A stretch of 64,000 nucleotides of DNA from Elusimicrobiota bacterium (lineage in GTDB: Bacteria > Elusimicrobiota > Elusimicrobia > UBA1565): the NCBI GenBank assembly GCA_016212885.1, contig JACRDO010000162.1, positions 4,985 through 68,984 of the forward strand, given 5' to 3'. Positions 8,503 through 42,670 of the stretch are shown here, piece by piece. Position 1 is the first letter of the stretch. Each line of letters starts with the position of its first letter. The position numbers were made by a program, and so were the translations under genes. The notes under the pieces were generated by a model that saw nothing but the letters and a program-made list of their open reading frames with translations, did no database searches and was not told the DNA's origin.

Positions 8503-10269
8503 TCAAAACCGGGGGCATCCCCTGCAGGCCTCGGGCGGGTCCGCTCCGAGCATGCGGCTGCGATGCTCGGTCATGGTCTGAGCGTTCCAGATCTCCGCGA
8601 AGGGTCGCCTCAGGAGGTTCCCGATCGGGACATTCGGCTGGCAATCGCAGAGAGTCACATCGCCGCGCACGCCGATCGGGACCGTCTGCCAAGGGGAGAA
8701 GCACCAGGCGTGCCGGCTCGAGCGGCTGTAGAGCTGGCTCGGCGGCAGGAGCAGGAATTCATCGTAGCGCTTCCAGAGGCCGAACTCCTCGATCCCGCGC
8801 ACGGACAGCACGGGCATGCCCGCCCGGAACGCTCTCGAGATTCCGCGGCGGATCGCGGCGGAAACGCGCCTGTTATGGTTGCGCCACAACGTTTTCGGCT
8901 CATTGGCCGCGAAATTGAGGTCCGTCAGCATCAGCCCCTGCACGCCGAGCCCGGCGATCAAATCGAGCAACTCTTCGAAATACGGCACGGTCGCCGCGGA
9001 CACCGCGGAGAACACCGCGGTGGATATCGGGCGCGAGCCTCGCGACGCTGAGACGAAGGCTTTGATGTTCTTGATCACCCGCTCCAGGTCGGTGCCCGGC
9101 CGAACCTCCGACGCGCTGCGCGGGTCCGGCGCGTCGATGCTGAAGGTAATGGACTCCAGGCCGGCCTGCAGGAGTCCGCGCGCCAGGGACGGCTCCAAGA
9201 GCATGGCATTGGTCACGAGCGATGTCCTGCGTCCCTGCGCCGCAGCCGCGGCCACCAGATCCACGACCTGCGGATGCAGGAGCGGTTCGCCCAGGCCCAC
9301 CAGCGTTATACGGTACGCATGCGGCAACAGGCCTAGGACCCTGCCGAACGTCTCACGGTCCATGTCCACGCCCTCCGGCCCGGCCGCGAGAGTGCGCGCG
9401 CAGTAGGCGCAGCGGAGATTGCAGCGGGTCGTGATCTCGACATTGGCGAAGACCGGTTCGTTATCCGCGACGGGCGTCAATCCCGGCCGCATGCCGGCGG
9501 CCCTCTGCGCGCTCGGACAGCGCGCCATGTGCCGGCAAGACGACGGAGAAAGCGTCAGGAACCGCGCCGCGTCGGGCTCGACCGCGGCGAGAGCCCCCAG
9601 GGCGCGTTCTTCATCGGGCGTCTGCGCGTGCACTGCGTCCGCAACGGCGCGAATGACCAGGTCCACGGCCAACGCATGGTTCTCCCCCCGGAACAGATCG
9701 TGTCCGGCGGACGGGACGATCGCAGCGCGTCCAGGCCGCTCGAACCCGTCCCGAGCCCAGGCGAAAGCCTCTTCGCTCGGGACCAGGTCGTCGTCAGCGC
9801 CGTGCAGGACGACGACGGGGAACTTCCCCGCGGCGCGTCGGGAGCCTACGGCGTTGATCAGCGAGACCATCTGCGCGACGGAGAGGAAGGAGATGCCGCT
9901 TCTCTTGGGCCGGTGCCTGGCCCAGCGTTCGAGGTGCGAGGGACCGATCGTCTTCGGCACGGACGCGAGGATCAACAGGGCGGGCTTGAAGGCCGAGTCC
10001 GCGAGCGCCTCGAGCGCCAGGATGCCGCCCGTGGAATGCCCCAGGAGGACGAGGGCGCGTCCTTCCCGCCGGTATCCCTCGACGGCATCGGCGATCGCCT
10101 TGATGAAGCCGGCCTGATCGAAGGACGGGGTCTGGCCGCCGCCGTGGCCTGGCAGACGGAGCCGGGTGACCGAATCATCCCCGTGGACCGCCGCCAACTT
10201 CCGCGACAGCGGCAAGAGGTCGTCGGGCGAGCCCGAGAAGCCGTGCACCAGGACGATGCCGGCGGACAT
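8503..10269 (-). CDS. fusion protein: N-terminal alpha/beta-hydrolase fold, C-terminal radical SAM with SPASM-type auxiliary cluster domain
   Basis: N-terminal VLVHGFSGS and GHSTGG (GxSxG nucleophile elbow). Then an rSAM CxxxCxxC (TTRCNLRCAYC) and a C-terminal Cys-rich SPASM-like tail (TLCDCQPN...ACRGCPRF). Confidence 0.75.
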   Translation of the reverse strand: MSAGIVLVHGFSGSPDDLLPLSRKLAAVHGDDSVTRLRLPGHGGGQTPSFDQAGFIKAIADAVEGYRREGRALVLLGHSTGGILALEALADSAFKPALLILASVPKTIGPSHLERWARHRPKRSGISFLSVAQMVSLINAVGSRRAAGKFPVVVLHGADDDLVPSEEAFAWARDGFERPGRAAIVPSAGHDLFRGENHALAVDLVIRAVADAVHAQTPDEERALGALAAVEPDAARFLTLSPSSCRHMARCPSAQRAAGMRPGLTPVADNEPVFANVEITTRCNLRCAYCARTLAAGPEGVDMDRETFGRVLGLLPHAYRITLVGLGEPLLHPQVVDLVAAAAAQGRRTSLVTNAMLLEPSLARGLLQAGLESITFSIDAPDPRSASEVRPGTDLERVIKNIKAFVSASRGSRPISTAVFSAVSAATVPYFEELLDLIAGLGVQGLMLTDLNFAANEPKTLWRNHNRRVSAAIRRGISRAFRAGMPVLSVRGIEEFGLWKRYDEFLLLPPSQLYSRSSRHAWCFSPWQTVPIGVRGDVTLCDCQPNVPIGNLLRRPFAEIWNAQTMTEHRSRMLGADPPEACRGCPRF

Positions 10270-10270
10270 G

Positions 10271-11506
10271 TCAGCGCGCCTCCAATAGGCCGGCGATCGT
10301 CTCCGCCCCCCGGTATCGCCGGATGGTCCTGCCGATCTCCGCCAGGCGGGTCTTGATCGAGGGATCCCGCACGATGCGGGATATCTTCGACCCTATCTCC
10401 TCGTCGCTCATGCGGTCGAGGGCTTTGGCGTAGACGCCCGGATGGCCTTGGAAGAGCTGAGACGCGATCAGGCGCGCTCCGCAGCCCAGACGTTCCAGAC
10501 AGACGCCGTTGTGCGCCTGTTCCGGCTGGAAAGGCATCACGACCACGGGGACCTCGTACTGCAGGGCTTCGAACACGGTCATCTGCCCGCCGTGCGTGAC
10601 CAGCACGGATGCGCTTGGCCATATCGCCGGGAGCGGCGCGAACGAATAGGCGATGACCCGCGGATCGTCCGGCATGACGGCGAGGAATTCCTTCTGTCCG
10701 CCCGCGGCCAGCGCCACACGGTACCCCCGGTCGACCAGGACCTTGATGATCCTCCTTATGGAAGGCAGGCATTTCGTACAAGTGCCGAACGCCGCGACCG
10801 CGAGCGGGCGGCCGCCATCGAGCCGGGCTTGTGGGTCGAACGCGTCATAGGGCCAGCGGTTCCAGGCGATCGGTCCCACATGGAAGAGGTCCGGTCTTCG
10901 CGGCAGGGGCGCGAACTCCGGGAAATCCCACAGGAACGTCCGCTCTCCCTTGAGCATGTGCCGGATATCGCCGCGGCTGCTCGGCAGGCCGCAGGCCGCG
11001 GCCGCATCCCCGACCTTGGCCCCCGCGTAGCGGTAAAAGCCTTCGAGATCGGCCCGCTGCGCCTCCCGGCCGGGATCGCCGGCGTCGTATCCCAGGACCT
11101 CCTCGGAATCGGGCGTCATGCACCCGCAGATGAGGGAATCATAGGGGATCCCGGCGATCCGAGCCGAAGCCTTGAGCGTGAAGCGGAACACCCCGAGAAC
11201 GCGGTCCGGCCGGTGCGCCCTCAGCAGATCGACTTCCGCCCGGATGCAGTCAATTATCGTCCGGGGCCGCCGGAACCACTCCACGGACGGGAACACGGAT
11301 TCGTCGGACTCCTGGATGTCGGGCAGGATCAGATGTTCGATGGCGAGCTGGCGGAGGAAGAGCGAATGATTGCTGCCGACGGCGACCTGCGCCTCCTGGC
11401 CTCGCTTTGCGAGCGCTTCGCCGACCGCCAGGCATTTGACGACGTGCGAGAGCGAGTTGTTGCCGGGGATCAACAGATATCTCTTGCGGACGGCCGATCC
11501 CATCAT
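10271..11506 (-). CDS. GT1-family (GT-B, MGT/UDP-glycosyltransferase-like) glycosyltransferase
   Basis: C-terminal donor-binding signature VTHGGQMTVFEALQYEVPVVVMPFQPEQAHNG. 411 aa. Confidence 0.75.
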   Translation of the reverse strand: MMGSAVRKRYLLIPGNNSLSHVVKCLAVGEALAKRGQEAQVAVGSNHSLFLRQLAIEHLILPDIQESDESVFPSVEWFRRPRTIIDCIRAEVDLLRAHRPDRVLGVFRFTLKASARIAGIPYDSLICGCMTPDSEEVLGYDAGDPGREAQRADLEGFYRYAGAKVGDAAAACGLPSSRGDIRHMLKGERTFLWDFPEFAPLPRRPDLFHVGPIAWNRWPYDAFDPQARLDGGRPLAVAAFGTCTKCLPSIRRIIKVLVDRGYRVALAAGGQKEFLAVMPDDPRVIAYSFAPLPAIWPSASVLVTHGGQMTVFEALQYEVPVVVMPFQPEQAHNGVCLERLGCGARLIASQLFQGHPGVYAKALDRMSDEEIGSKISRIVRDPSIKTRLAEIGRTIRRYRGAETIAGLLEAR

Positions 11507-12076
11507 CTATTCCCCCTCCTCGCTTTCCTGCAGAGTGTGGATCTTCATGCGGTACCCCAAGCCGAGGTGCTCGAACTCCAGGTCGCTATGGAGCCGGTCC
11601 GCGCCGCCGTAGCGGATGCGCACCACCGCCTCTCCGTCCTTGAGCAGGGTCCGTTCGGAGCCCGTGTCCTGAAGATTCCAGGCCGGACCTGGGAGCGCGG
11701 CTTGGACCGCGGCGGCCGGCCAGGAGGCGAGCTGGACGTCGCGCAGGATGAGCTTCAGCGCAAGCCCCTTGGGGATGGAGCGGTCCCGCTCTTCGATGAG
11801 CTTCTCGCCGTCCCATCTCAGGGAGAGCATGCGGGTGCCGAAGGGACTCAATCCGACCAGCACCACCTCGGTCGTGGAAACCTCCACGAGGGCGGTGCTG
11901 TCGAAACGCGTCGTTCCTCTCTCGAAGGACACCTCCTGGGTCATGCTCGCCTCGAAGCCGGCTTCGGACGGCGCAAGGAGGAAGAGCCCGGGGTCGAGCC
12001 GGCGCCTGGCGGTCGCGTCGCAGCCGGGCAGAAGCAGCGCCAAGCCGAGCAGAACGAAGGCGTTGTTCCCTTTCAT
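11507..12076 (-). CDS. lipoprotein (ApeN/DUF3261-like position in the export module)
   Basis: Signal peptide with lipobox (LLLPGCD). The start was set at MKGNNAF (ATG at 12076); the track ORF 11507..13267 is an out-of-frame read-through. Assignment is by position after the MMPL exporter. Confidence 0.5.
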   Translation of the reverse strand: MKGNNAFVLLGLALLLPGCDATARRRLDPGLFLLAPSEAGFEASMTQEVSFERGTTRFDSTALVEVSTTEVVLVGLSPFGTRMLSLRWDGEKLIEERDRSIPKGLALKLILRDVQLASWPAAAVQAALPGPAWNLQDTGSERTLLKDGEAVVRIRYGGADRLHSDLEFEHLGLGYRMKIHTLQESEEGE

Positions 12077-14418
12077 GAAGTCTCGTTCCCCCGGAAGCAC
12101 GGCCCCAGCAGCCACGACAAACCGATGCCCAGGAGCATGCTGAGGCCGAATGTGTGCAGAGCCGGGGTCCGGCTGAGCGCCAGCAGCCCGAAGGACAGCA
12201 GCGTGGTCATGGCGGCCAGCGAGGAACTCAGCAGGGCGACCCGGTGGTCGCCGGCGCGGCGGTCCTGGAGGAATATCCCATAATCGATCCCCGTGCTCAG
12301 AACGAGGGCCAGCCCCAGGATGCAGAACAGGTTCGAGTTCTGCCCGGTCAGGCCGAAAATGCCGAGCGTATAGAGCGACGCGAGCATCGTGGGGGCGACC
12401 ACCCTCCATGTCCGGCGCCGGTACGTCGCGAAGAGGCAGGCGGCCACCAGCAGATGGCCCAGGACCAGAAGCCGGCCGATGCCGATGCGCAAGCCCCGCA
12501 TCATCTTCGAAAGGTCGAAGAGGTGGTCCACGAAGACCGTCCCCGGCTGGCGCCCCGCCAGTTCCTTGAGCGCCTCTACGGACCGCGGCCCGCCGACACC
12601 GCTGAGAGTGACCGCCGCAGACCAGCCCTCCGCGGTCCGCCCCATCCACAGCGAACGGAAAGGCTCCGACAGCGGCGAATCCAGCCATGTCCGGGGCGTC
12701 AGGGGCGCTGGCGGCGGAACCTCGGCCTGGCGGCGGGCCAGCAGGGCCGCCTCGGGCGAACCCAGGCCGCCGAACAGCTTGGACGCCAAGGCGCCGTCCC
12801 GGTATATCCGCCGCCACATCAGCGCGCGATCGGCTTCCTGCCGTCGCAGCGAAGGCACGAACTGCGAGACGGACTGGAAGTCCGCGATATGCCCTTGCCG
12901 CCGGGCCGCCTCGAGGCCCTCGGCCAAGGTCTCCGAGCGCTCGAGCAGGGTCTGCTCGTCGGGCGCGCTCAGCAGGAAGAATTGGCCGGCCCCCGGCAGG
13001 CGCATGAGCCTTTCCACGCGTTCCTGTTCGCGCATCAGCTCCGAGGAAGGGATGAAGAGCCGGCGCACATCGTCGTCCGGGCGCAGCCGGGTCATGCCCC
13101 AGAAGGACAGGCCCAGCAGCCCCGCGATCGCCGCCATCATGCCCCAGCCGCGGTCCAGGCTCGGCCAACGGGCATGCGCCCGCTCGAGAAAACCGGGCAG
13201 GGGTCCTAGATGGACATCGGGCATGCGGCGGCTGAGCCCGGGCAGCCAAGCCGCGACGCTCAGCCACGCGCCGCCCAGGCCCAGGATGCTGAAGACAGCC
13301 ATCTCCCTGAGGATGGGGAACGGCAGGGCCGCCAGTACCGCATAGCCGACCAGGCTCGTCGTCAGTGCCATCCCCAGCGTCGGCAGGATGCCCTTAATCC
13401 GCGCCCCGGCGTCCCAGACCCGGGTTGGATCGGCGCAGCCCGATACGTAAAGGATGCCGTAGTCCACGGCCACGCCGATGACGCTCGTTCCGAAGACGAA
13501 AGTCAGAAGATGCAGACGTTCGAAGAACATCCGGCTCAGGCCCATGGCGAGGAGACAGCCGACGCCGATGGGAAGCATGACGAGGGCCAGGGGCTTGAAG
13601 GAGCCGAACGTCAGGAGCATCAGGAGGACGATCCCGAGCAGCGAGCCCACGGCGATTGTGGACATCTCACGCTGGGCCTGCCGGGAGGCTCGGGCGCTGT
13701 GCAGGACGAATCCGGCGCGCAGGACATCCTCGGCGCCCGCCTGCTTCGCCGCGCGCACGGCGGCGTCGAGCGCGTTCGAGAGAGCCTGCTGCTCGGCGAT
13801 GGAGGCTGGATGGCCGGACAGCTCCACGAACACGACCACCCATGCGCCGCCCCCCTCCGGGATCGTGAGCCGGTCTCCGGTTGCGCTCAGGGAGCTCCGG
13901 GACGCCGCTTCCAGCAGGTTCTCGGTGAACAAGCCGAAGGGATCGGATTCCAGCGGGGCCAGGCGCGGCGGCCCGATCGGGCTGTAGAGGCTCTGCGTGG
14001 CGCGTGAGAGCAGGGCCGAATCGGGCTCCTGGCGCAGACGCTCGCGCTGGGCCGGGGTGAGCAGGCGGTAGCGCCAAGGGAGATAGAAATCCCGGGCCGC
14101 GCCGAAGACGTCAGCCTCCAGCCGGGACATGACGTGCGCGATGCCGGCCCGGCCCTTGAGCGCGTCGGAACAGGCATCCGCGGCCCGGCCGGCCGCCTCT
14201 ATGTCCCGGTGCCGCAGCAGCACCACAACACGGCGGGACCCGGCCTCGGCCATGCGCCCGACCGCCTGACTCACCAGCGGGCGCCGGCTGTCGGTGGGCA
14301 GCAGGGCCATGAGGTCCGTCTCATAGCCCGTGCCGCGGGCGCGACTCCAAAGCAGGAGCCCCCCGGCCAGGGCGGTCAAGGCCGCGAGGATGAAGGGGAG
14401 TATCCGCGGCCTATTCAA
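12073..14418 (-). CDS. MMPL/RND-superfamily predicted exporter (ApeM/HpnN-like)
   Basis: 781 aa with two blocks of TM helices separated by large periplasmic loops, the typical RND/MMPL topology. Sits next to a LolA-like gene, as in APE clusters. Confidence 0.75.
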   Translation of the reverse strand: MNRPRILPFILAALTALAGGLLLWSRARGTGYETDLMALLPTDSRRPLVSQAVGRMAEAGSRRVVVLLRHRDIEAAGRAADACSDALKGRAGIAHVMSRLEADVFGAARDFYLPWRYRLLTPAQRERLRQEPDSALLSRATQSLYSPIGPPRLAPLESDPFGLFTENLLEAASRSSLSATGDRLTIPEGGGAWVVVFVELSGHPASIAEQQALSNALDAAVRAAKQAGAEDVLRAGFVLHSARASRQAQREMSTIAVGSLLGIVLLMLLTFGSFKPLALVMLPIGVGCLLAMGLSRMFFERLHLLTFVFGTSVIGVAVDYGILYVSGCADPTRVWDAGARIKGILPTLGMALTTSLVGYAVLAALPFPILREMAVFSILGLGGAWLSVAAWLPGLSRRMPDVHLGPLPGFLERAHARWPSLDRGWGMMAAIAGLLGLSFWGMTRLRPDDDVRRLFIPSSELMREQERVERLMRLPGAGQFFLLSAPDEQTLLERSETLAEGLEAARRQGHIADFQSVSQFVPSLRRQEADRALMWRRIYRDGALASKLFGGLGSPEAALLARRQAEVPPPAPLTPRTWLDSPLSEPFRSLWMGRTAEGWSAAVTLSGVGGPRSVEALKELAGRQPGTVFVDHLFDLSKMMRGLRIGIGRLLVLGHLLVAACLFATYRRRTWRVVAPTMLASLYTLGIFGLTGQNSNLFCILGLALVLSTGIDYGIFLQDRRAGDHRVALLSSSLAAMTTLLSFGLLALSRTPALHTFGLSMLLGIGLSWLLGPCFRGNETS

Positions 14419-15010
14419 AAGACGCGCTCTCGGCTCCGCTCAACTCCGCGCCCAGCTTCACGTCGCTGAAATCGATCACGGTGCGGTCGCCGTTGGCTTC
14501 CGATATCTCGATCTTTTCCAGGGTCTTGCCGCCCTGCAGGCGGATCTGGGCGACGACCTTGGCCACCAGGGCCTCCTTGGGCTTCAGCTCGGCCTTCCAG
14601 CGGCCCTCGACCAGCGGCGGCCCCGTGATGTCGAAATGCCGCTTGAGCTCGCCCACGTCCGCGGAGAAGACCGCGAAGAGGACCTTGCTGATCAACCGGA
14701 GAGCCGGCTGGTCCTCGGCCCGCATCCGGAAGCCCACTTTGCCGTCCTTGATCTGCGCGACCTCGACGGCAGTGATCTTTATGGCGCTGAGCGCCGGCTT
14801 GAGCGTGCGCCAGAGCGCGCCCTTGTCCTTCGCCAGCACGAAATCGCCCGAGGAACGCAGGGGCCTCTTGATGATTTTGATGGTTTTGACCTGTTGGAAG
14901 CGTCCCCGCAGGACGGTGAAGGGGGTCAACTGCTTCTGGATGTCCTCGACGATGCCTGGATGCGCCGTCGCGGGAAGAATGACCAGCAGGATTGCGAGCA
15001 GGGCCTTCAT
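14411..15010 (-). CDS. LolA-like outer-membrane lipoprotein carrier family protein (ApeL-like)
   Basis: Signal peptide (MKALLAILLVILPATAHP). About 200 aa beta-rich periplasmic protein. Overlaps the exporter start by 8 nt. Confidence 0.6.
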   Translation of the reverse strand: MKALLAILLVILPATAHPGIVEDIQKQLTPFTVLRGRFQQVKTIKIIKRPLRSSGDFVLAKDKGALWRTLKPALSAIKITAVEVAQIKDGKVGFRMRAEDQPALRLISKVLFAVFSADVGELKRHFDITGPPLVEGRWKAELKPKEALVAKVVAQIRLQGGKTLEKIEISEANGDRTVIDFSDVKLGAELSGAESASFE

Positions 15011-15145
15011 GGTTCATGATGTTACACAACCGTTCTTCTGCCGTCAAACCCTGCCTTGCCCCCGGCAGGCTATCTCTTAATGACCCATTTTGTTAAACTA
15101 AAAACTCGTCCGTCAACGACGAGCCAAACATCCGCGCGATCCGGC

Positions 15146-17767
15146 ATGAAGATCAAGCTCATCTATCCGAAGTGGCCGAAACTGGCGCGGCAGACGGAGT
15201 TTCATCTGCCGCCGCACGGCCCGGTCTGCTTCGCAGCCACCGTGCCCGCCGAAGACGAACTCGTCTTCACCGATGAGAACCTGGAGGCCATCGACTTCGA
15301 CGACCAGGCCGACCTCATAGCCATCTCCTGCCTGCTGACCTGCCAGATGCCGCGGGGTTGGGAGATCGCGGACCGCTTCCGCGCGCAGGGCGTCCCCGTC
15401 ATCTTCGGCGGCATCGGGACCATGCTGCATGCCGCGCAGACCCTGCAGCATGCGGATTCGGTCTTCCTGGGAGAGACCGAAGGCCGCTTCGGAGAGGTCA
15501 TCGCAGACATGAAGCGCAAGAGCCTCAAGAAGGCGTATGACTTCCAGCACGATTTTCCCGACATAAGGATGGTGGGGCCGGCGCGGCGGGACATACTCAA
15601 CCGGAAGCTGTACAACTACCGCGGCGTGCAGATGGTCGACCTCCTCCACGCCTCGCGCGGCTGCCGGTTCGACTGCTACCCCTGCTGCGCGAGATTCCTG
15701 GGCGGCCGCTCATTCAGGCCGCGGCCGATCGACCAGGTGCTCCGGGAAGTCGAATCCATCGACAACAACCGTCTATTCTTCGTGGACAACTCGATGGCCC
15801 AGAACGACCAGTGGGAGAAGAACCTGTTCCAGGCCCTGGCCCCGCTCAAGAAGCATTGGATCTGCCATCCCATCAAGGACGACGACGAGATCCTGGACCT
15901 TGCGGCCCGAGCGGGCTGCTGGTATGTCTACCAGGCGATATTCGACGTCTCCGAGCGCATCCGCAGCCGCGTCAAGCGCCTGAAGGAGCGCGGCATCGGC
16001 GTCGAAGGGACGATCCTGCTCGGCCTTGACGAGCAGGACGAGGACGACATCAAACGGCTCGTCGACTTCCTGCTCGATATCGAGCTGGACCTGGCCGAGT
16101 TCACCGTCCTGACGCCGTTCCCGCACACCCCGGCCCGCGAAGCCCTGGCAAAGGCGGGCCGCATCCTGAGCGACGACTGGCGGCGCTACACCGGCGGGGA
16201 GGTTGTGTTCCAGCCGGCGCGGATGTCCCCGGCGAAGCTCCAGGAGCTCTACCACTACGCCTGGGACGCCTTTTACCCGAACAACAGCCAGAACCTGGCG
16301 ATGGCCAAGCTCTTCATGAAGGTCGTCGGGAAGGAACGGGGCGAGGGGACGTATCGCCGGCCGCAGCTGCTCTCAGCGGGATGGGAGGCGAAGCGCCGCC
16401 GTCGCGCAATGAAGATCCTGCTGATCTCGCCGAACCTGACGCTGTCCCCCTATCCGGTCTACCCCCTCGGCATGGGCATGATCGCCGCGGCCCTGCAGGA
16501 CGCCGGCCACGAGGTCCGGCAGCTCGATCTCCTGCAGCTGGGCCCCGGTCTCGACGCCGTGGCGCGCGAGGTCCGGCGGTTCAAGCCAGGCCTCGTCGGG
16601 CTCTCGGTGCGCAACATCGACAACGTCAACCTCCTGAACGAACAGCACTACATCCGGAACATCCGGGCCGTCGTTGCCAAGGTCCGGGAGGCCACGGACG
16701 CGCGGGTGCTGCTCGGCGGCGCCGGGTTCTCGCTGATGCCGGAGCTCATCCTGCGGGAGGTCGGGGCGGATTACGGCATCGTCGGAGAGGGGGAGGCCCT
16801 GGCGGTCGAGTTCGCGCGCAACGCCCAGGCGGGGACGTTCCCCGCGGAGCCCATCATCCGCTCGGACGGCTGGATCCCCGGCGGCCGGATCGGCCCGGCG
16901 CTCTACGACGAGAGCCTGCTCCCGTTCTACCTGAGCAGGGGCCGCATCGCCTCGGTCCAGACCAAGAGGGGCTGCGCCTCCCGGTGCGTGTACTGCACCT
17001 ATCCCCTGCTCGAAGGCGCGCGCCTGCGCGCGAGGGAGCCCCGGTCCGTCGTGGACGACATCGTGCGCCTGCGCGACCGGCACCAGGCGAAGCACATCTT
17101 CTTCGTGGACTCGGTCTTCAACGACGACGAAAAGACCTATCTCGCAGTCGTCGCGGAGATGGAGCGCCGAGGCGTCTGCATGCCCTGGACCGGCTTCTTT
17201 AAGCCTGGCGGCCTCGACGATGAGACCGTCGCGCGCATGAAGCGCACGGGCTTCGCGGCGGCCGAGATCGGCGCGGACGCCGCGTGCGACACGACGCTCC
17301 TCAGGCTCGGGAAGGATTTCACATTCCGCGAGGTCAGGGAATGCAACGACCTCCTCGCGCGCCACGGGGTCGCTGCGGCCCACTACTTCATGTTCGGAGG
17401 CCCCGGCGAGACGCCGGAAACCGTGCGGGAGGGCATACGGAACGTCCTGGGGCTCAAAGACTGCGTGGCCGTCATCTTCATGGGAATCCGCATCCTGCCC
17501 GATACGCCGCTGGCTCGGCTCGCGGTCAAGGAGGGCGTCATCGCTCCCGGCCAGGGGCTCCTGGACCCGGCCTACTATGTATCCCCGGGCGTAGACCGGG
17601 AATGGCTCGAGCGCGCTTTGACCGAGGCCTTCGCAGGGGTGCGCCGCTGCGTATTCCCCCCCGACTCCCTGGACGGCCATGTCATGGCCTTCCACAAGAT
17701 GGGCTACACGGGCCCCCTGTGGGAGATGCTCCTCCCCCGCAGAAGTCTTAGAAGAAGAAGACCTTGA
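15146..17767 (+). CDS. tandem B12-binding radical SAM protein (two complete class-B rSAM modules in one polypeptide)
   Basis: Module 1: MKIKLIYP... B12-like domain plus CxxxCxxC (SRGCRFDCYPC). Module 2 begins at MKILLISPN..., with a second B12-like domain plus CxxxCxxC (KRGCASRCVYCTYP). There is no stop between the modules. Alternative starts are at 15056 and 15083. Confidence 0.75.
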   Translation: MKIKLIYPKWPKLARQTEFHLPPHGPVCFAATVPAEDELVFTDENLEAIDFDDQADLIAISCLLTCQMPRGWEIADRFRAQGVPVIFGGIGTMLHAAQTLQHADSVFLGETEGRFGEVIADMKRKSLKKAYDFQHDFPDIRMVGPARRDILNRKLYNYRGVQMVDLLHASRGCRFDCYPCCARFLGGRSFRPRPIDQVLREVESIDNNRLFFVDNSMAQNDQWEKNLFQALAPLKKHWICHPIKDDDEILDLAARAGCWYVYQAIFDVSERIRSRVKRLKERGIGVEGTILLGLDEQDEDDIKRLVDFLLDIELDLAEFTVLTPFPHTPAREALAKAGRILSDDWRRYTGGEVVFQPARMSPAKLQELYHYAWDAFYPNNSQNLAMAKLFMKVVGKERGEGTYRRPQLLSAGWEAKRRRRAMKILLISPNLTLSPYPVYPLGMGMIAAALQDAGHEVRQLDLLQLGPGLDAVAREVRRFKPGLVGLSVRNIDNVNLLNEQHYIRNIRAVVAKVREATDARVLLGGAGFSLMPELILREVGADYGIVGEGEALAVEFARNAQAGTFPAEPIIRSDGWIPGGRIGPALYDESLLPFYLSRGRIASVQTKRGCASRCVYCTYPLLEGARLRAREPRSVVDDIVRLRDRHQAKHIFFVDSVFNDDEKTYLAVVAEMERRGVCMPWTGFFKPGGLDDETVARMKRTGFAAAEIGADAACDTTLLRLGKDFTFREVRECNDLLARHGVAAAHYFMFGGPGETPETVREGIRNVLGLKDCVAVIFMGIRILPDTPLARLAVKEGVIAPGQGLLDPAYYVSPGVDREWLERALTEAFAGVRRCVFPPDSLDGHVMAFHKMGYTGPLWEMLLPRRSLRRRRP

Positions 17768-18302
17768 CCTGCGCGAGCAGCGTAACGACGTTGGCGCTAT
17801 AGTCGATGTAGGCGCTCGACATCGCGGTGTGGTCCCACCGCAGTTCCGGGCCGATCGCGATGCGCTCCTTGACGAAGAAGTCCGCCCCGCCGTTGAACCC
17901 GAAGCCGACGATGCCGATGGAATCCGTGCCCGTCATCGTGATGCCTCCGACGGTAAATCCCGTCCCCACGTACGGGACGACCTTCGGGTTCGGGAAGAAG
18001 TGCCATTTCACGAACGGCGCCACTGAGGTGTAGGTCAGGGTAGTGCCGCCGGATTTCATCCCCGTCACGAAGAACGCGGTGCCGACCTCGAGGGGCTGCG
18101 TGATGAAGTACCCGACCCCGCCTCCCAGAAGCGACTGGCTCGATGACCCCCCCTGACTGGGAGATGTCTTCGAGTAGGAGCCCAGGAGGCTGAGTTCCAG
18201 GTTCCCTTTCGATATGAAATCGTCCAAGGCCGACGCCGGGACGAACGGCGCCGTCATCGTGGCCACGAGCAGCAAGAGCCCGACGGTCTTCTTCGTCGTC
18301 AT
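17748..18302 (-). CDS. outer-membrane beta-barrel protein (OmpW/OmpA-like small porin family)
   Basis: Signal peptide, alternating amphipathic beta-strand pattern and a C-terminal ...VKVFFF (terminal Phe). Preceded by AGGAGGG. Confidence 0.65.
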   Translation of the reverse strand: MTTKKTVGLLLLVATMTAPFVPASALDDFISKGNLELSLLGSYSKTSPSQGGSSSQSLLGGGVGYFITQPLEVGTAFFVTGMKSGGTTLTYTSVAPFVKWHFFPNPKVVPYVGTGFTVGGITMTGTDSIGIVGFGFNGGADFFVKERIAIGPELRWDHTAMSSAYIDYSANVVTLLAQVKVFFF

Positions 18303-18370
18303 TGCACCCTCCTATAATACATTACAATCCTGCGGCGGATATTAGCATATCTGTGCGCAGCTTGGGTCTC

Positions 18371-20233
18371 CTACCGGAGGGTGACGGTGAGATCGGAGTC
18401 GAAGGTGGGGGTCTGCTCCCGGTTCTGGCGGCGGGCTTCGTCCTGTACGCGGGGCTGCAGGTACTCGAAGAGGCTCTTGGTGGTGATCCGGCCCGACGCA
18501 TCCTTGGCCTCGCCATTCAATCCCTTGAGGAGGAAGTAGGTGAATATCCCGTGGGACGCCTCCTTGTAGGTCGTCGTGATCTCGTCGGCCGAGGCCGCCG
18601 TCAGGAGGGACAGCTTGCCGCCGTGCCTCTTCTCGATGTCCACCCGGGTGACGAGCGGCCGCGCGCCTTGGGCCAGCACGGACCGGCCGCCCGCGCCCGA
18701 GAAGCAGGCGTCGAGCAAGATCACGACCTCACCCGCCTGGAGCGCGGCCAGAGCGTTGTAGAGCCGCTTGACCGGGTAGGCTGTGTCCGAGAGGAAGCCC
18801 GGGTCCCCGTCCCAGGGGACCAGGAAGGCCTCCCCCGTCTTCGGGTCCGGCGCGCCGTGCCCGGAGTAATAGAAGAACACGCGGCTCGAGGGCTTCACGT
18901 TGCGCGGCAGCCAGGACTCGAGGTACTTCTTGAACGACGCGAAGCCCGCCTGCGCGCCGGCGAGGTGGATGATGTTGCGCCGCGGGACGCCCAGCGCCTC
19001 GATATGGGAGAGGACGGCCCCCGCGTCCCGCTCCGCGAAATCAGCCTTGGGGATGGTCGAGTAGCCCTCTATCCCGATCACCAACGCGAAGTCGTCTTCG
19101 CGCGGGGCGGCCTTGTATGCCGCAAGGACGGGTGAGGGCGCCGGCGGCGCCGGACGCTCCTCCGCGCGCGGCGCGTCGGCGCGCTGCCTCGCGGCCGATG
19201 CGACGGCGGCGGGCGGGGGCAGGCCGCGAATCCGCCAGGCGGAGATCTTTCCGTCATTGCCCGCCGCCGCAAGCCACTGCCCGTCGCGGCTGAGCGCGAC
19301 CGAGACGACCGCCGAGTCCTGCGGGAGGGCCGTGATCTCCGCCTTCCGGCCGACGTCCCAGAGGTGAACGGTTTTGTCCGGGCCGCCCGACGCGGCCAAA
19401 CGTCCGCCGTCGTCCAAGGCGACGGAGACGACCTCCTGCATGTGGCCGGAGAAGACGGCGAGCTCCTCGCCGGTCGAGGCGCTGCGCAGCTTCACGAGGT
19501 GGCTCCAGACGGGCGCTCCGGCGCGCGCGCGCCGGCTGCCTTCCCGGCTCTTGACTTCGGTGAGTCCCATCGCGAAGATGTCGGACCCCGCCGAGAAGGC
19601 GACGGAAACGACCTCCCCGTACCGGCTCGCGGACTCGCTCAGGGTCCTGCGCTCCTTCCTCCCGGCCACATCCCACAGGCGGACCGTCTTGTCGCCGCTC
19701 GCCGAGATGAGGCCCTGGCCGTCCGGAGTGAAGGTCAGCGCGAGGATCTTCCCCTCATGGCCCGTCAGCCGGCCCTGGCTCTTGCCGAACTTGACGTTCC
19801 AGAGCTCGATGGTCCCGCCGTCGTCCCCTGAGGCGACGGTCGCGCCGTCCGGGCTGAAGGCCACGGCCCCGACCGATTTGGAGAGCCCCGTGATCGACTG
19901 GACGGCCCGTCCGCTCGCGACCTCCCAGAGCATGACGGTCCGGTCGTCGGCTCCCGTGGCCAGCGTCCGCCCGTCGGGAGCGATCGCCGCGGCGCGGACA
20001 CGGCTTCGGTGCCCCTGGAGGGCGGCAAGCCGGGTCCCCTTATCGAGGTCCCAGACGGATATCGTTTTGTCGTCCCCGATGGACACGAGCCCGCCGGCGG
20101 GGCCGAACGCGAGCCCCCGGATGCCCCTGCCGGCCATCAGGACGTGCTGAAGGTCGCAGGAGATCGCGGACTCCTGCGAACCCAACGGGGCGGGGAGGCT
20201 TAGGGCGGCGAGGACCAGCCATACGGCGATCAT
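18371..20233 (-). CDS. secreted WD40-repeat / caspase-like (peptidase C14) fusion protein
   Basis: Signal peptide. About 7 WD40 repeats (GH...WD/WN/WE motifs). The C-terminal caspase fold has a His-Cys dyad (FFYYSGHGAPD ... VVILLDACFSG). Confidence 0.75.
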   Translation of the reverse strand: MIAVWLVLAALSLPAPLGSQESAISCDLQHVLMAGRGIRGLAFGPAGGLVSIGDDKTISVWDLDKGTRLAALQGHRSRVRAAAIAPDGRTLATGADDRTVMLWEVASGRAVQSITGLSKSVGAVAFSPDGATVASGDDGGTIELWNVKFGKSQGRLTGHEGKILALTFTPDGQGLISASGDKTVRLWDVAGRKERRTLSESASRYGEVVSVAFSAGSDIFAMGLTEVKSREGSRRARAGAPVWSHLVKLRSASTGEELAVFSGHMQEVVSVALDDGGRLAASGGPDKTVHLWDVGRKAEITALPQDSAVVSVALSRDGQWLAAAGNDGKISAWRIRGLPPPAAVASAARQRADAPRAEERPAPPAPSPVLAAYKAAPREDDFALVIGIEGYSTIPKADFAERDAGAVLSHIEALGVPRRNIIHLAGAQAGFASFKKYLESWLPRNVKPSSRVFFYYSGHGAPDPKTGEAFLVPWDGDPGFLSDTAYPVKRLYNALAALQAGEVVILLDACFSGAGGRSVLAQGARPLVTRVDIEKRHGGKLSLLTAASADEITTTYKEASHGIFTYFLLKGLNGEAKDASGRITTKSLFEYLQPRVQDEARRQNREQTPTFDSDLTVTLR

Positions 20234-20263
20234 AGCGCCCGGCCTCTTTCTGATGCGCGCGCC

Positions 20264-20823
20264 CTACGGAATGATCGCGCCAATATACTCGGCGATGATC
20301 CTTCCCATGTCGGAGGGCAATGTGCGGTCGCTGCTGCCCATCGTCCACGCGGCGCCCATGGCATTGTTGGCCGTCGAGAGCAGCTTTTCGCGCACCACCT
20401 CTCCGGTGGCGGCATCGGTGAGCGTCAACTGCACGCTCATGTCCGAACTGCCCACCATGGCCCCGAGCCAGAGCCGCGCGCCGCCGCTCACGATCCTCAT
20501 GTTGACGACCGAGCCTTTCAGGAGGAGGGCATTTTTGTAATTCGCGCCGGCCTTCGCCTTCGTCACCGTATCGAAGAGCCTTTTTGATATCAAGGCCGAC
20601 ATGGCGGAGCTCTCGCATTCAGACACCGCCTTGGGGTAGTCCGTCGCGAGCTTCGGATCTATCTCGAAATCCTGGAAGACGAGCTTCGAATACCGCTGCG
20701 TCAGGGGAACCTCTTTTTCCTGCACCCTGAGGGCCCGATTGCCCCCGCAGGCGGACAAGACCATCGCTCCCAACAGAACGGCCGCGGACAGGACCAGATT
20801 TCCGAATGAAGTCCTTGTATTCA
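20264..20823 (-). CDS. lipoprotein, function unknown
   Basis: Start at MNTRTSF (ATG 20823) preceded by GGAGGAG. Lipobox LSACGG. Confidence 0.55.
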
Positions 20824-20867
20824 TGATAAGGCTCCTCCCCATTTTGGCCAGACGTACCGCGCGCAGC

Positions 20868-21530
20868 TCAATAATAATCCCCATCCCCGCCCCTAAATAA
20901 CCTGAAGGCGACGCCCAATTGGACCATCAAGCCGCTGAAATCCAGTTCATTGCGGTTCGCGACCCAGCCGTGATGGGTCGTCACCTTCAGGGGCGGCATG
21001 GCAAGATAGTCCAAGCTCGCCTGGAAGGAACACGTCTTCCCGACATTGAAGACCACGCCAAGCATGGGGCCCGTCCCGGGCTCGATGCTCACGTCGCCGG
21101 AATCGGATGATATCCCGGTCCATTGGGGCCTGATGTTCACGACGCTCAGATGCGGGCCGAGGGTGACGACCCGGCCGAGCTTGAACTTCAACGCCGCATC
21201 GCCGAAATAGAGGGGCCCGTAAAATGCCCCGACGAATCCGCCGGCGCCGCCGGTCAAGTCCAGGTAGGCGAAAGGCATCTCGATGCCCACCCCGATCTTC
21301 GTTGTCGGGGACCAGCTCATCCCGCTATTGACCGTATCCGTATAGCTATAGGAATACCACCCCCCATAGTACGACTTGCTGACATTGAAGCCCGTGAGAT
21401 TACTGCTGTTCAGGAAGTTCCCCGGCATGATGTCGAAGACCATGTTCACGCCCGCGAACGCCCTGCACGGAACAAGACATGCGGCCAGAGCGAGCGCGGA
21501 GATCGCCCAGGCTTTGTTGATCGCTTTCAT
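20868..21530 (-). CDS. secreted beta-rich protein, possible outer-membrane protein
   Basis: Signal peptide MKAINKAWAISALALAACLVPCRAFAG. Gly/aromatic-rich amphipathic strands. Preceded by AGGGAGAG. Confidence 0.5.
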   Translation of the reverse strand: MKAINKAWAISALALAACLVPCRAFAGVNMVFDIMPGNFLNSSNLTGFNVSKSYYGGWYSYSYTDTVNSGMSWSPTTKIGVGIEMPFAYLDLTGGAGGFVGAFYGPLYFGDAALKFKLGRVVTLGPHLSVVNIRPQWTGISSDSGDVSIEPGTGPMLGVVFNVGKTCSFQASLDYLAMPPLKVTTHHGWVANRNELDFSGLMVQLGVAFRLFRGGDGDYY

Positions 21531-21603: not shown

Positions 21604-22839
21604 TCATTTATGCCATCTCTTGAAGATGAGAGAAGTGTTCACGCCGCCGAACGCGAAGTTGTTGGTCATCAAGTACTCGACCTGGAGCTCGCGGGGGGCG
21701 CCGATGACGTAGTCCAGCTTCCCGCAGCGCGGATCCACGTTCTTCAGATTGAGCGTGGGAGCGACCCATCCCTCCCGCATCATATGGACGGATATCCAGG
21801 CTTCCAGCGCGCCGCACGCGCCCAGCGTGTGCCCCATGTAGCTCTTCAAGGAGCTGATCGGCAGGCGCTCGCCGAATATCCGCTGCGTGGCCTGGCTTTC
21901 CGCGATGTCGCCGAGCTCCGTAGCGGTGCCGTGCGCGTTGACATAGCCGACGGCCGAAGGATCCAGCCGGGCATCCTCCAAGGCCAGGCGCATCGCCCGC
22001 TCCATCCCCTCGCTTGAGGGGTTCGTCATGTGCACCCCGTCGCAGTTGGTGGCGTAGCCTGCCAGCTCGGCGAGGATGGCCGCACCTCGGGCTTTGGCAT
22101 GGTCAAAGTCCTCCAGAACCAGAGTGGCCGAACCTTCGCCCACCACCAGGCCGTCCCGTTCCACGTCGAAGGGCCGCGGCGCGCAATGAGGCGTCTCGTT
22201 CTTGGTGGAGGTGGCGTACATGATGTCGAACACCACGGCGTCAATCACATGGAGTTCCTCCGCGCCGCCGCCCACCATGACGGCTTGTTTGCCGTACTTC
22301 ACGGACTCGTAGGCGTACCCGATGCCCTGGCTCCCGGCCGTGCAGGCCGAGCAGGTGGGGATCACCCGGCCCTTGATGCCGAAAAACTGGCCGAGGTTCG
22401 CGGCGCAGGTGTGGCTCATCAGTTGGATGTAGGTGACCGGCGAGACGCCCTTGACGCTCTTGTTGACATAGATCAGCCGGCAGTATTCCTCCATCGCGGG
22501 CGGGGAGCCGGAGGTGGACCCGAACGAGATCCCGGTCGATCCGTCGCTCAGGATGGGAGAATCCAGCAGCTTCGCTTCCATCAGCGCGAGCTCGGTGGAG
22601 CGCGCCGCCATCAGGGCCACCCGTCCCATGGTGCGGATCTTCTTGCGCGGGTAGTGGTCCGGCGCGGCGAAATCCGCCACCCGGCCTGCCAGCCGGGTCA
22701 GCATGCCCTCGACCCCGCCCCAATCCGGCATCGCGACGATGCCGGACTTCATCCCCCGCAGGTTCTCCCGCACCGTCGGCCAATCCTGCCCGAGCGGGCA
22801 GAGCCCCGCCATCCCAGTCACGACGACCCGTTTGGTCAC
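21604..22839 (-). CDS. fabF: beta-ketoacyl-ACP synthase (KAS I/II family)
   Basis: Active-site Cys in IPTCSACTAGS; His motifs (YVNAHGTAT, KSYMGHTLGACG); C-terminal NNFAFGGVNTSLIF. GTG start at 22839 overlaps the fabG stop (ATGTTGTGA). Confidence 0.8.
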   Translation of the reverse strand: MTKRVVVTGMAGLCPLGQDWPTVRENLRGMKSGIVAMPDWGGVEGMLTRLAGRVADFAAPDHYPRKKIRTMGRVALMAARSTELALMEAKLLDSPILSDGSTGISFGSTSGSPPAMEEYCRLIYVNKSVKGVSPVTYIQLMSHTCAANLGQFFGIKGRVIPTCSACTAGSQGIGYAYESVKYGKQAVMVGGGAEELHVIDAVVFDIMYATSTKNETPHCAPRPFDVERDGLVVGEGSATLVLEDFDHAKARGAAILAELAGYATNCDGVHMTNPSSEGMERAMRLALEDARLDPSAVGYVNAHGTATELGDIAESQATQRIFGERLPISSLKSYMGHTLGACGALEAWISVHMMREGWVAPTLNLKNVDPRCGKLDYVIGAPRELQVEYLMTNNFAFGGVNTSLIFKRWHK

Positions 22840-23561
22840 AACATGCCCCCGTTCACGGAGATGCACTGGCCCGTAATATAGGCCGCTCCTTGAGAGAAGA
22901 GGAAGGCGACGGCGGCGGCCACCTCCTCCGGCTGGCCCACGCGATGCAGCGGGATGGCCTTCACGATTGAATCCAGCGGCAGCCCATCGATCATCTCGGT
23001 CTCGATGAGGCCCGGTGCGACGCAGTTGACGGTGATCTGCCGCTTCCCCAGCTCCCTGGAGAGCGCCTTGGCCGCGCCGATGATCCCCGCCTTGGCCGCG
23101 CTGTAGTTGACCTGGCCGCGGTTGCCCGCGATCCCGGACAGCGATGACATGGCGACGATGCGCCCGCCCTGCTTTGCGCGAACCATTTCCATGGCGAGCG
23201 GCGAGAGGACGTTGAAGAACCCGTCGAGGTTCGTCCGCAGGACTATGTCCCATTGCTCGCCGGTAAGCGCGGGGAACGGCGCGTCCGCGATGGCGCCGGC
23301 GTTGCACACGACGCCCCAGAAGACGCCGCGGCGCTGGATGTCTTCGGCCAGCGCACGACGCGTCCCTGGGCGGTCGCAGACGTCGAAGGGCAGGAGACTC
23401 CCGGAACCGCCGCCGGCCAGGATGCGCGCGAGAGCCTCGTTCGCCGCGGCCTGGCTGCTCTTGTAGTTGACCGCCACATCGAATCCGTCGGCCGCCAAGC
23501 GCAGGGCGGTGGCGAGCCCGATGCCGCGGCTTGCGCCCGTGACCAGAACTCTTCTCTTCAA
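22836..23561 (-). CDS. fabG: 3-oxoacyl-ACP reductase (SDR family)
   Basis: TGASRGIG cofactor motif and a YSAAK catalytic motif. 241 aa. Confidence 0.85.
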   Translation of the reverse strand: MKRRVLVTGASRGIGLATALRLAADGFDVAVNYKSSQAAANEALARILAGGGSGSLLPFDVCDRPGTRRALAEDIQRRGVFWGVVCNAGAIADAPFPALTGEQWDIVLRTNLDGFFNVLSPLAMEMVRAKQGGRIVAMSSLSGIAGNRGQVNYSAAKAGIIGAAKALSRELGKRQITVNCVAPGLIETEMIDGLPLDSIVKAIPLHRVGQPEEVAAAVAFLFSQGAAYITGQCISVNGGML

Positions 23562-24025
23562 AGCTCGCTCTCCTCAAGGAACCGCTCGATCTCCTTGGGC
23601 CGATACAGGTTCAACTGAGCGGCGACGAGCGTCCGCCGGGTTACGGCGTCCTGAACCGAACAATCGAAGACGAACAACTCCCCCTCCCCCCAGACGCGCC
23701 GCGCCGACACGTGCAGCGTCTGCCCCGGGGTGAAGCCCCGCGTCCGGATGTCGACGCGCCGCGAACCCAGCAGAAAGCCGACACTGGGCCCTACGCCGCG
23801 GGCCCGGTCGGCCATCCCGGCGTGGGCGGCCACGGCCTGCGCCATGTATTCCAGGCCGACCCAGGCCGGGACTTCCCCGTCCTCCAGGAACATCGACTCC
23901 GGGGTGAGAACCGCATCGCAGACGGTCCCCTGCGCGTCATGGCTGATGACGCGGCGCAAGAGCACCATGCGGCCGGAATGCGGCACGACGTCCCTTGCCT
24001 CTACCGGGGGTGTAAGAGTGTCCAT
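23558..24025 (-). CDS. hotdog-fold 3-hydroxyacyl-ACP dehydratase (FabZ/FabA-like, ApeI-like)
   Basis: About 150 aa with an FabZ-like core (GRMVLLRRVISHD ... AWVGLEYMAQ). Lies between the KS-like gene and fabG. Confidence 0.6.
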   Translation of the reverse strand: MDTLTPPVEARDVVPHSGRMVLLRRVISHDAQGTVCDAVLTPESMFLEDGEVPAWVGLEYMAQAVAAHAGMADRARGVGPSVGFLLGSRRVDIRTRGFTPGQTLHVSARRVWGEGELFVFDCSVQDAVTRRTLVAAQLNLYRPKEIERFLEESEL

Positions 24026-30543: not shown

Positions 30544-30786
30544 CTAAGTCCTCTTGAAGATGACTTCAACGACGTCCTGGACAGTCCGGATGGACCGCAG
30601 CTCGGATTCCACCAGCTTGATCCCGGTCTCGGTCTCCAGCTTGACCGCCAAGTCGATGGCATCGATGCTGTCGAGATCCAGATCCTCGAATAGTTTGGCG
30701 TCGGGCTTGACGGCTTCCCTGTCGATTCCAAACTCCTTTACGAACACGTCGGTGATCTTTTGAGTTATCTGTTCTTTGGTGCCCAT
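30544..30786 (-). CDS. acyl carrier protein
   Basis: 80 aa with the phosphopantetheine-site motif DLDSID. Confidence 0.8.
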   Translation of the reverse strand: MGTKEQITQKITDVFVKEFGIDREAVKPDAKLFEDLDLDSIDAIDLAVKLETETGIKLVESELRSIRTVQDVVEVIFKRT

Positions 30787-30795
30787 GCCCTTGCT

Positions 30796-37442: not shown

Positions 37443-37444
37443 TC

Positions 37445-37981: not shown

Positions 37982-38022
37982 CTAAGCCACTCCCCGCTTA
38001 TAATGTTAAAATCTCCTTCAGG

Positions 38023-42660: not shown

Positions 42661-42670
42661 TGCGTTTTTT
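42643..42670 (+). terminator. putative Rho-independent terminator
   Basis: 6-bp stem (CGCATC / GATGCG) spanning the stop codon, followed by TTTTTT (42665-42670). Confidence 0.4.

Follow-up and report, generated by a model that had tools for sequence, protein, structure and literature searches.

The stretch of DNA analysed here (the window) comprises 64,000 nucleotides of contig JACRDO010000162.1 in the genome assembly GCA_016212885.1 of an Elusimicrobiota bacterium. Its + strand carries an open reading frame (ORF) of 873 codons in which two radical S-adenosylmethionine (SAM) modules follow one another, and the explanation that fits best overall, which we hold to be fairly likely, is a fused pair of two different radical-SAM genes in an aryl polyene (APE)-type cluster. 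The ORF listing of the window shows the frame open without break from a TTG at 15056 to 17767, and the ATG at 15146 (MKIKLIYPKW) is the start position in all homologues, which gives a product of 873 amino acids (aa). Overall GC content of the sequence is about 65%, and in the frame it amounts to 0.88 at the third codon position (GC3) versus 0.43 at position 2, which fits a real gene at this place. Since the C-terminal half matches the NCBIfam family TIGR04072 with an E-value of 1.5e-187, the frame is a coding sequence and not a chance GC-rich ORF. Pfam finds both B12-binding and Radical_SAM twice in the full-length protein. A preliminary description of this DNA had reported a single uninterrupted 2.6 kb frame with two radical-SAM modules, and this is borne out by the ORF listing and by the location of both CxxxCxxC motifs. 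The features of the gene and the evidence used for each are as follows (pLDDT, predicted local distance difference test).

15146-17767, + strand: fused 873-aa ORF with an N-terminal radical-SAM module, a linker of ~40 aa and a TIGR04072 module (profile matches, GC3)
15146-15520, + strand: Rossmann-type domain of the N-module, aa 1-125 (sub-threshold Pfam B12-binding match, structure model, profile alignment)
15623-16342, + strand: radical-SAM barrel and C-terminal helices of the N-module, aa ~160-399 (Pfam, fold match)
15662-15685, + strand: CxxxCxxC motif of the N-module, CRFDCYPC, aa 173-180, C173/C177/C180 (invariant in family alignments A1 and A4)
16343-16408, + strand: non-conserved tail/linker, aa 400-421, predicted to be disordered (model pLDDT, DNA alignments)
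16409-16412, + strand: relic ATGA overlap, with ATG at 16409-16411 and an out-of-frame TGA at 16410-16412 (DNA alignments)
16412-16810, + strand: predicted cobalamin-binding domain of the C-module, aa 423-555 (Pfam, TsrM alignment)
16964-17767, + strand: radical-SAM barrel and conserved C-terminal segment of the C-module (TIGR04072 profile, TsrM fold match)
16973-16996, + strand: CxxxCxxC motif of the C-module, CASRCVYC, aa 610-617, C610/C614/C617 (invariant in C-family alignments)

The C-module belongs to TIGR04072, a family that is already known and uncharacterised. Residues 423-863 score 623.7 bits against this profile (cut-off 360) and cover positions 1-442 of its 443. The family carries the short name rSAM_ladder_B12 and the description "lipid biosynthesis B12-binding/radical SAM protein", and its members are normally stand-alone proteins of ~456 aa, whereas here the module is the C-terminal half of a longer chain. 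With Pfam, the C-half alone gave 71.3 bits for B12-binding and 57.3 bits for Radical_SAM. Its second-best NCBIfam match was BzaD (TIGR04385, 200.5 bits, cut-off 450), which belongs to benzimidazole C-methylation in the anaerobic synthesis of the B12 lower ligand and has an unrelated gene context, followed by TsrM (TIGR04428, 145.7 bits, cut-off 500). Scores for HpnJ (98 bits, cut-off 578), BchE (95, 481), PhpK (95, 600), HpnR (84, 650) and AprD4 (73, 500) were lower still. The preliminary description had placed both modules in class B, and in the comparison with characterised families (HpnR, BchE, TsrM, BzaD, PhpK, HpnJ, AprD4) neither half reached a cut-off. In a published network of B12 radical-SAM enzymes the TIGR04072-type family appears as "Ladderane" among those with other or unknown transformations (PMC12931638). 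We found no paper on TIGR04072.

The best match of the C-module, by sequence (6wte, E-value 4.9e-35) as well as by fold (E-value 2.5e-27, TM-score 0.70), is the tryptophan C2-methyltransferase TsrM. In TsrM, Arg69 occupies the lower axial face of cobalamin, and Glu273 is a ligand to the unique iron that blocks canonical SAM binding and underlies the non-radical mechanism of the enzyme (PMC12931638). Arg489 of the fused protein (16610-16612), in the motif VRNID, aligns with Arg69 and is nearly invariant in an alignment of 45 sequences and invariant in one of 50. In contrast, Glu273 is replaced by Val657, a valine that is nearly invariant in TIGR04072, and Glu236 of TsrM is replaced by Tyr619. 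The context also differs, as TsrM acts on a thiopeptide precursor and the C-module lies among lipid/polyene genes. From these residues, the C-module looks like a TsrM-type cobalamin binder with a cluster open to ordinary SAM binding, and such an open site would be compatible with ordinary radical chemistry, unlike that of TsrM. A further motif of the family, FPPD...L..LHK.GY.G..W (17654-17722, aa 837-859), hardly varies, yet the pLDDT is below 50 over most of it in the model; this segment may be a docking site for a partner, a carrier protein or a cofactor.

The N-module is of another kind. Its Pfam Radical_SAM score (32.7 bits) lies just over the cut-off of 29.5, and it reaches no curated NCBIfam cut-off, the top score being 69 bits for TIGR04072. 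In the structure model of the N-half, which has a pLDDT of 91.4, a radical-SAM barrel comes after a five-stranded Rossmann-type domain (aa 1-125). Among PDB entries, the fold of this half is matched best by the radical-SAM 1,2-diol dehydratase AprD4 (6fd2; E-value 5e-19, TM-score 0.76, 17% identity), ahead of MgmA, TsrM, MiaB and CysS, and AprD4 is also its sole sequence match in the PDB. Against the AprD4 profile NF033070 the N-half scores 29.6 bits (cut-off 500), and the likeness to AprD4 is one of fold only, consisting of a Rossmann-like N-terminal domain and a radical-SAM barrel.

Whether both halves begin with a B12-like domain, as the preliminary description had it, depends on the half. 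For the C-half this stands on its 71.3 bits. The N-half scores 28.9 bits (E-value 1e-6) against Pfam B12-binding, under the cut-off of 32.1, and matches profile positions 49-120 only, and the "B12" label is unproven for this module. Profile comparison indicates that the N-domain is homologous to that of the C-family (probability 99.9%), and of the B12-binding motif it retains S61-x-L63 and G88-G89, with S61, G88 and G89 invariant in the family; Leu63 occupies the position of the Arg in the TsrM-like family. AprD4, with its Rossmann-like domain, does not bind cobalamin (PMC12931638). AprD4 differs from the N-module in that the latter keeps the SxL...GG remnants, but going by its fold match and its Pfam score the N-module may bind no cobalamin at all.

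The notion of "twin" class-B modules does not hold, as the halves come from two distinct families and share 27% identity over 166 aa. They are nevertheless distant homologues over 337 profile columns that span the Rossmann domain and the barrel, and the order of domains is alike in both, as would be expected if tandem duplication of one class-B radical-SAM gene had made both modules. This origin was rejected, and we consider its probability negligible: each half is closest to its own stand-alone family and not to the other half, with 64-86% identity to different families whose genes are adjacent in hundreds of genomes. When fused, N-only and C-only proteins were aligned together with MAFFT (A2), paralogy drew the C-family onto the N-region; this alignment was discarded, and A3, A4 and A5 were used instead.

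In a search of 1.84 billion cluster representatives, the top places were taken by a stand-alone 424-aa protein with 64% identity to aa 1-405 and a stand-alone 457-aa protein with 54% identity to aa 422-871, and none of the best 150 matches covered the full length of the 873-aa product. The N-family is large, with more than 6,000 clusters at E-values of 1e-20 or below, and is without any curated model. Its top 120 matches all have lengths of 418-473 aa, for the most part 421-424 aa, and identity reaches 86% in the closest. Genomes were scanned with the N-family alignment as query, with one genome per species; this gave at least 541 encoded relatives, of which the best 80 loci were examined. No fused gene occurred in these 80 loci. 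A TIGR04072-type gene lay directly downstream on the same strand in 50 of the 78 loci with downstream room, and 35 of these 50 have overlapping genes: the overlap is 4 nt long (ATGA/GTGA) in 22 loci and a single nucleotide in the other 13. In 11 more loci, mostly of Desulfobulbaceae type, the TIGR04072 gene is a few kb off. The N-family is hosted by lineages of anaerobes, namely Nitrospirota, Desulfobacterota (with Geobacter and Desulfuromonas), Omnitrophota, Lentisphaerota (with Victivallis), Planctomycetota, Verrucomicrobiota, Elusimicrobia, Holophaga and others. Carriers in culture are Victivallis vadensis DSM 14823, Desulforhopalus sp. IMCC35007, Hydrosulfovibrio ferrireducens, Pelobacter propionicus and Geobacter. 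With hardly an exception, other genomes have N-family and TIGR04072 genes that are separate and, from their overlaps, apparently translationally coupled. We found no paper that describes this constant pairing.

The fused state itself was traced through the nearest relatives of the window gene (L084, L087 and L085/L086), all of which are unfused with a stop that overlaps the next start. The N-half is 86% identical to that of L084 and the C-half 78% identical to that of L087. The closest syntenic locus is that of Elusimicrobia GWA2_69_24 (L085/L086; N-half 78%, C-half 71% identical), and L085 shares with the window both the divergent LolA arrangement and a block of ketosynthase (KS), ketoreductase (KR), ApeP, CLF, KS and lyase genes. 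DNA alignment shows that the tails in L084 and L087 are of equal length (...GW and 10 codons) and end in a TGA overlapping a GTG. The window is 5 nt shorter than both between 16393 and 16394, at the junction GAAG|CGCC just upstream of the former start ATG, and this deficit shifts the upstream frame into the downstream frame. That ATG and, out of frame, the former stop TGA are both kept. About 8 codons were altered by the deletion, all in the non-conserved tail, and the invariant residues of both families are all present in the fused protein. Both halves show dN/dS values of 0.24-0.39 against unfused relatives, thus purifying selection.

We consider it quite probable, on this comparison of sequences, that the fusion is real in the organism, and it is probably recent, since a 5-nt gap in non-repetitive sequence is unlike a typical sequencing slip. 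Several points weigh against it. Continuity of the frame rests on the 5-nt length difference to the nearest relatives. A collection of 5.8 billion proteins holds a 448-aa NCBI protein identical to aa 426-873, and neither the 873-aa product nor any identical N-half; the annotators of the record therefore did not accept a fusion protein. Most simply, the annotation would have given the N-half no protein, for instance as a frameshifted pseudogene. Scans of metagenome contigs with the back-translated junction peptide GWEAKRRRRAMKILLI and with a 27-mer shared with L084 gave no match, which leaves the junction without independent confirmation. The fusion could accordingly be an artefact of assembly or consensus, or a fresh disabling frameshift, with two separate proteins actually made. 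Such a view would agree with the unfused state of all three nearest relatives, with the ancestral ATG and out-of-frame TGA that are still there, with an NCBI-derived protein set that holds only the C-half of this genome, and with the metagenome-assembled source. We regard it as improbable, because the 5 nt lie outside any homopolymer, only the ~8 non-conserved tail codons are touched while every conserved motif is kept under purifying selection on both modules, and such a fusion is tolerated in nature by another clade. A scan for promoters and terminators (14900-18400) gave weak consensus matches only and was not used.

The other clade consists of four proteins of 877 aa (P0001-P0004; JGI, Logan, NCBI) that cover 100% of the query with 59-62% identity to the window product and 81-88% among themselves. 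Together with the window, these were the only five sequences with the fused architecture in the search of the 5.8-billion-protein collection, which shows that it is rare. The N-halves of P0001-P0004 are nearer to stand-alone proteins than to the window (P0001: 83.6% to P0268, 73.6% to the window), the closest relative of the window product is a stand-alone protein and not one of the four, and at their junction both ATG and TGA are lost (CTC AAG in L001). From this pattern, the genes appear to have fused at least twice independently, in an old and maintained event in P0001-P0004 and in a recent one in the window. P0008 and P0009, and the fragments P0049 and P0114, also span the junction; as they look frameshifted and stem from error-prone assemblies, they were not counted as fusions. 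Read by eye, the TIGR04072 module also stands behind an acyltransferase-like N-terminal region in P0053 (754 aa) and behind a radical-SAM/SPASM-like module in P0076 (807 aa), which gives further hints on cooperation among the cluster enzymes.

When two genes are constantly adjacent, overlap at stop and start and have fused repeatedly, this is classical evidence that their proteins act together in fixed stoichiometry, and the N-family and TIGR04072 proteins are on this ground predicted to do so. The TIGR04072 enzyme thereby has a constant partner, which is a radical-SAM family without a name and with thousands of members. The fused architecture is a variant of this common two-gene unit and not a new kind of system, and the fused state in the window is a minor recent event that gives no sign of new chemistry by itself. 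Its value lies in the evidence that the two enzymes belong together and in a single-chain form for biochemistry; in practical terms, expression or assay of the B12 enzyme should include the partner or a natural fusion. An analogous case is FbiC of F420 biosynthesis, a fusion of CofG and CofH with two radical-SAM modules, each with its own CxxxCxxC, that carry out consecutive radical steps on one intermediate. Some lineages encode CofG and CofH side by side in two genes, and others have them as a single polypeptide. Their families and pathway are, however, unrelated to those of the window gene and lack a cobalamin domain, so this is an analogy only.

The fused gene lies in a region with the following genes, identified in the Pfam survey where nothing else is given (ACP, acyl carrier protein).

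3342-4187, - strand: PlsC-type acyltransferase
4250-5752, + strand: third B12-binding radical-SAM gene (Pfam B12-binding 81.7 bits, Radical_SAM 80.1 bits; BchE/HpnJ-like, below their cut-offs)
5704-8415, - strand: polysaccharide deacetylase, SAM methyltransferase, GT2 and DUF2062 in one 903-aa ORF
8503-10269, - strand: fusion of alpha/beta-hydrolase (thioesterase) and radical-SAM/SPASM, the fourth radical-SAM module of the locus
10271-11506, - strand: GT28-like glycosyltransferase
11507-12076, - strand: DUF3261 protein (ApeN-like), listed ORF over-extended upstream
12073-14418, - strand: MMPL/HpnN-like exporter
14411-15010, - strand: LolA-like carrier, divergent from the fused gene
21604-22839, - strand: KS
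22836-23561, - strand: KR (SDR)
23558-24025, - strand: ApeP-like dehydratase
24001-24760, - strand: CLF-like Ketoacyl-synt_2 protein, start approximate (Pfam survey; counterpart in L085)
24774-25994, - strand: second KS, 74% identical to the KS of L085 (sequence comparison)
25991-27556, - strand: aromatic amino-acid ammonia-lyase, for supply of the aryl starter
27553-28554, - strand: lipid-A-type acyltransferase
28604-30532, - strand: fusion of AMP-ligase and ApeI-like dehydratase
30544-31095, - strand: two ACPs (30544-30786 and 30796-31095)
31187-31939, + strand: SAM-dependent methyltransferase, at the edge of the cluster

By its predicted gene content this is a complete aryl-polyene-type type II polyketide synthase/fatty acid synthase cluster. 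As in APE/flexirubin-type clusters, there are an ammonia-lyase, an AMP-ligase, two ACPs, a KS with a CLF-like protein, a KR and ApeP/ApeI, and also a lipid-A-type acyltransferase, glycosyltransferases, LolA, MMPL and DUF3261. The four radical-SAM modules of the locus set it apart; classical APE clusters, as in E. coli, Vibrio and Xanthomonas, are not known to have radical-SAM genes. The earlier claims on the surroundings are in agreement with the gene map: the fused gene diverges from the LolA and MMPL genes, a third B12-type radical-SAM gene is present at 4250-5752, and the tie to an APE-like lipid pathway is strongly corroborated by dozens of genomes in which the same pair lies among KS, CLF-like, ACP, ApeP, LolA, MMPL and lipid-A-type acyltransferase genes. 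Likewise, other TIGR04072 members sit in lipid/polyketide clusters (L001, L085 and 46 larger loci). In the survey of these 46 loci of at least 15 kb, a KS and a short KS-like gene lie directly upstream of the pair, with thioesterase, DUF3261, ApeP, MMPL, LolA, radical-SAM/SPASM, AMP-ligase and PlsC genes further upstream, and GT2-DUF2062, lipid-A-type acyltransferase and ACP genes downstream. Orthologues of the third B12 radical-SAM gene (72-76% identity) directly follow the pair in Geobacter- and Holophaga-type loci, hence the three B12-type modules are a conserved trio in part of the family. This radical-SAM-bearing variant of the aryl-polyene-type cluster is widespread in anaerobes. The part of our reading that we hold with high confidence is that two conserved, coupled genes of this pathway are fused in the 873-codon frame. 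Rfam and tRNA scans of the window gave no cobalamin riboswitch and no RNA genes, and the Pfam survey of the larger ORFs within the 64 kb gave no genes for cobalamin synthesis or uptake.

Some details vary among these clusters. A KS-like protein of ~226 aa, with a partial or no match to the ketoacyl-synt N-domain, is encoded directly before the pair in about 50 loci (within L004-L083); the window has no such gene at that position, and the pair is divergent from LolA instead. The deacetylase plus methyltransferase and the GT2 plus DUF2062, unlike in the 903-aa window ORF, are separate genes in L003 and L053, and the window cluster seems to have a tendency towards gene fusions. The interval from the fused gene to the KS block (17748-21530, - strand) is occupied by pathway-unrelated genes for an outer-membrane beta-barrel, a DUF4410 protein, a 220-aa protein and a 620-aa WD40 propeller protein, the last with a C-terminal caspase-like HG...C pattern seen by eye and not confirmed by Pfam; in L085 this interval contains nothing but the 220-aa homologue and a GIY-YIG gene. 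A HemN-like radical-SAM gene (Radical_SAM and HemN_C) occurs in the related cluster L002 (15700-17106), whereas the window lacks such a gene. Among HemN-like enzymes are the polyketide cyclopropanases Jaw5 and C10P.

For the fused pair we propose the following scheme. The ancestor would have had an upstream gene for a ~423-aa radical-SAM protein with a Rossmann-type N-domain and an AprD4-like fold, and a downstream gene for a ~456-aa TsrM-like TIGR04072 protein. A net deletion of 5 nt in the non-conserved tail of the upstream gene would have joined the frames, and ribosomes would now read through a disordered linker of ~40 aa, with the catalytic motifs of both modules intact. The modules would work as a 1:1 complex, here tethered covalently, presumably on an ACP- or lipid-bound polyene or acyl chain. 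The TIGR04072 module would use cobalamin, most probably to methylate a carbon, and the N-module would perform a second SAM-radical step.

C-methylation is our best guess for the C-module because its nearest characterised relatives, TsrM and BzaD, are known or predicted methylases of sp2 carbons; by this analogy we put it forward tentatively, at slightly below even chances. The carbon that TsrM methylates is an sp2 carbon in an electron-rich ring, and BzaD is a predicted sp2-carbon methylase (PMC12931638). A hydroxyphenyl-polyene would offer sp2 carbons suited to such a methylation. On the other side of the balance, a biochemical function has been reported for neither family (PMC12931638, PMC13459092), which makes the chemistry an inference. 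Ordinary SAM methyltransferases are already present in the cluster (5704-8415, 31187-31939), hence methylation does not strictly need a cobalamin enzyme. The physical complex of the two modules is a proposal: the full-length AlphaFold model has a predicted template modelling score (pTM) of 0.54, with pLDDT below 50 at aa 375-418 and only 5 sequences in the alignment of the N-region, and the inter-module arrangement was predicted without confidence. Use of this model was confined to the domain boundaries, the disordered linker and a fold search with the C-module.

The pair could instead perform radical C-C bond formation or cyclisation, or an anaerobic dehydration, desaturation or oxidation of the chain, for which BchE, HpnJ, OxsB and AprD4 are examples from other pathways. 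Reactions other than methylation are known from several B12 radical-SAM enzymes (PMC9204698, PMC12931638). The fold of the N-module is nearest to a dehydratase, the SAM methyltransferases of the cluster could account for methylation, and two or three radical-SAM genes in a row suggest a multi-step remodelling. We nevertheless think this less likely than methylation. The nearest characterised relatives of the C-module are a C-methyltransferase and a predicted one, C-methyltransferases occur in each group of B12 radical-SAM enzymes that has been sampled for function (PMC12931638), and AprD4 matches at the level of fold, with 17% identity.

The short name rSAM_ladder_B12 suggests yet another product, the cyclobutane rings of ladderanes. 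Genome-mining papers have reported clusters with the label "ladderane", which the radical-SAM-bearing variant found here resembles, in many non-anammox anaerobic phyla with unknown function (PMC9902471), and many of these phyla also have the variant. Literature on aryl polyenes together with radical SAM or ladderane yielded only genome-mining surveys. In Kuenenia, the type II fatty acid synthesis (FASII)-like anammox clusters (kuste3335-3352, kuste2803) combine FASII-like genes with radical-SAM, methyltransferase and polysaccharide-deacetylase genes, as does the window (PMC2649909), and it is the radical-SAM enzymes of such clusters that stand as candidates for making ladderanes (PMC2649909, PMC10139942, PMC13459092). 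Ladderane-type rings as the product of the pair are, however, very improbable. At least 541 species-level genomes of bacteria other than anammox bacteria carry the pair (Nitrospirota, Desulfobacterota, Omnitrophota, Lentisphaerota, Verrucomicrobiota, Elusimicrobia and others), the window host itself being an elusimicrobium and not an anammox planctomycete. Desulfotalea psychrophila has homologous radical-SAM genes in a syntenic cluster and makes acyclic polyunsaturated compounds and no ladderanes (PMC2649909). The window cluster has a full aryl-polyene gene set, and the window showed no gene of phytoene-desaturase type. Kuste2803, the candidate from anammox bacteria, falls into a group with BchE and HpnJ and not with TsrM (PMC9204698); an identification of TIGR04072 with Kuste2803 was therefore rejected, and Kuste2803 is more like the third gene (4250-5752) than the fused gene.

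A more far-reaching form of the two-enzyme scheme is conceivable, which we consider doubtful. The N-family and TIGR04072 proteins would form an obligate radical-SAM machine of an AprD4-like and a cobalamin-dependent TsrM-like enzyme, which would remodel ACP-bound polyene or acyl chains of anaerobes in two coupled radical steps and so make an undescribed class of outer-membrane lipids. If this were true, the natural fusions (the window gene and P0001-P0004) would be ready-made single-chain forms of the machine. The radical-SAM enzyme of the putative anammox ladderane cluster has so far failed to be produced heterologously (PMC10139942), and the natural fusions might succeed where this failed and open up the chemistry of ladderane-type clusters.

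Outside the cluster, the GC content falls to 0.51 at 36001-38000 and 0.54 at 42001-44000, versus ~0.65-0.69; these stretches contain few or only short ORFs and gave no Rfam or tRNA matches. A further patch of lower GC (50-52 kb, 0.55) holds a ParE-type toxin and Phd/YefM antitoxin pair (51856-52439, - strand). Lastly, a 633-aa protein (61487-63388, - strand) combines an isochorismatase domain, an APH-like kinase region and the ternary-complex-associated domain 9 (TCAD9, 209 bits).

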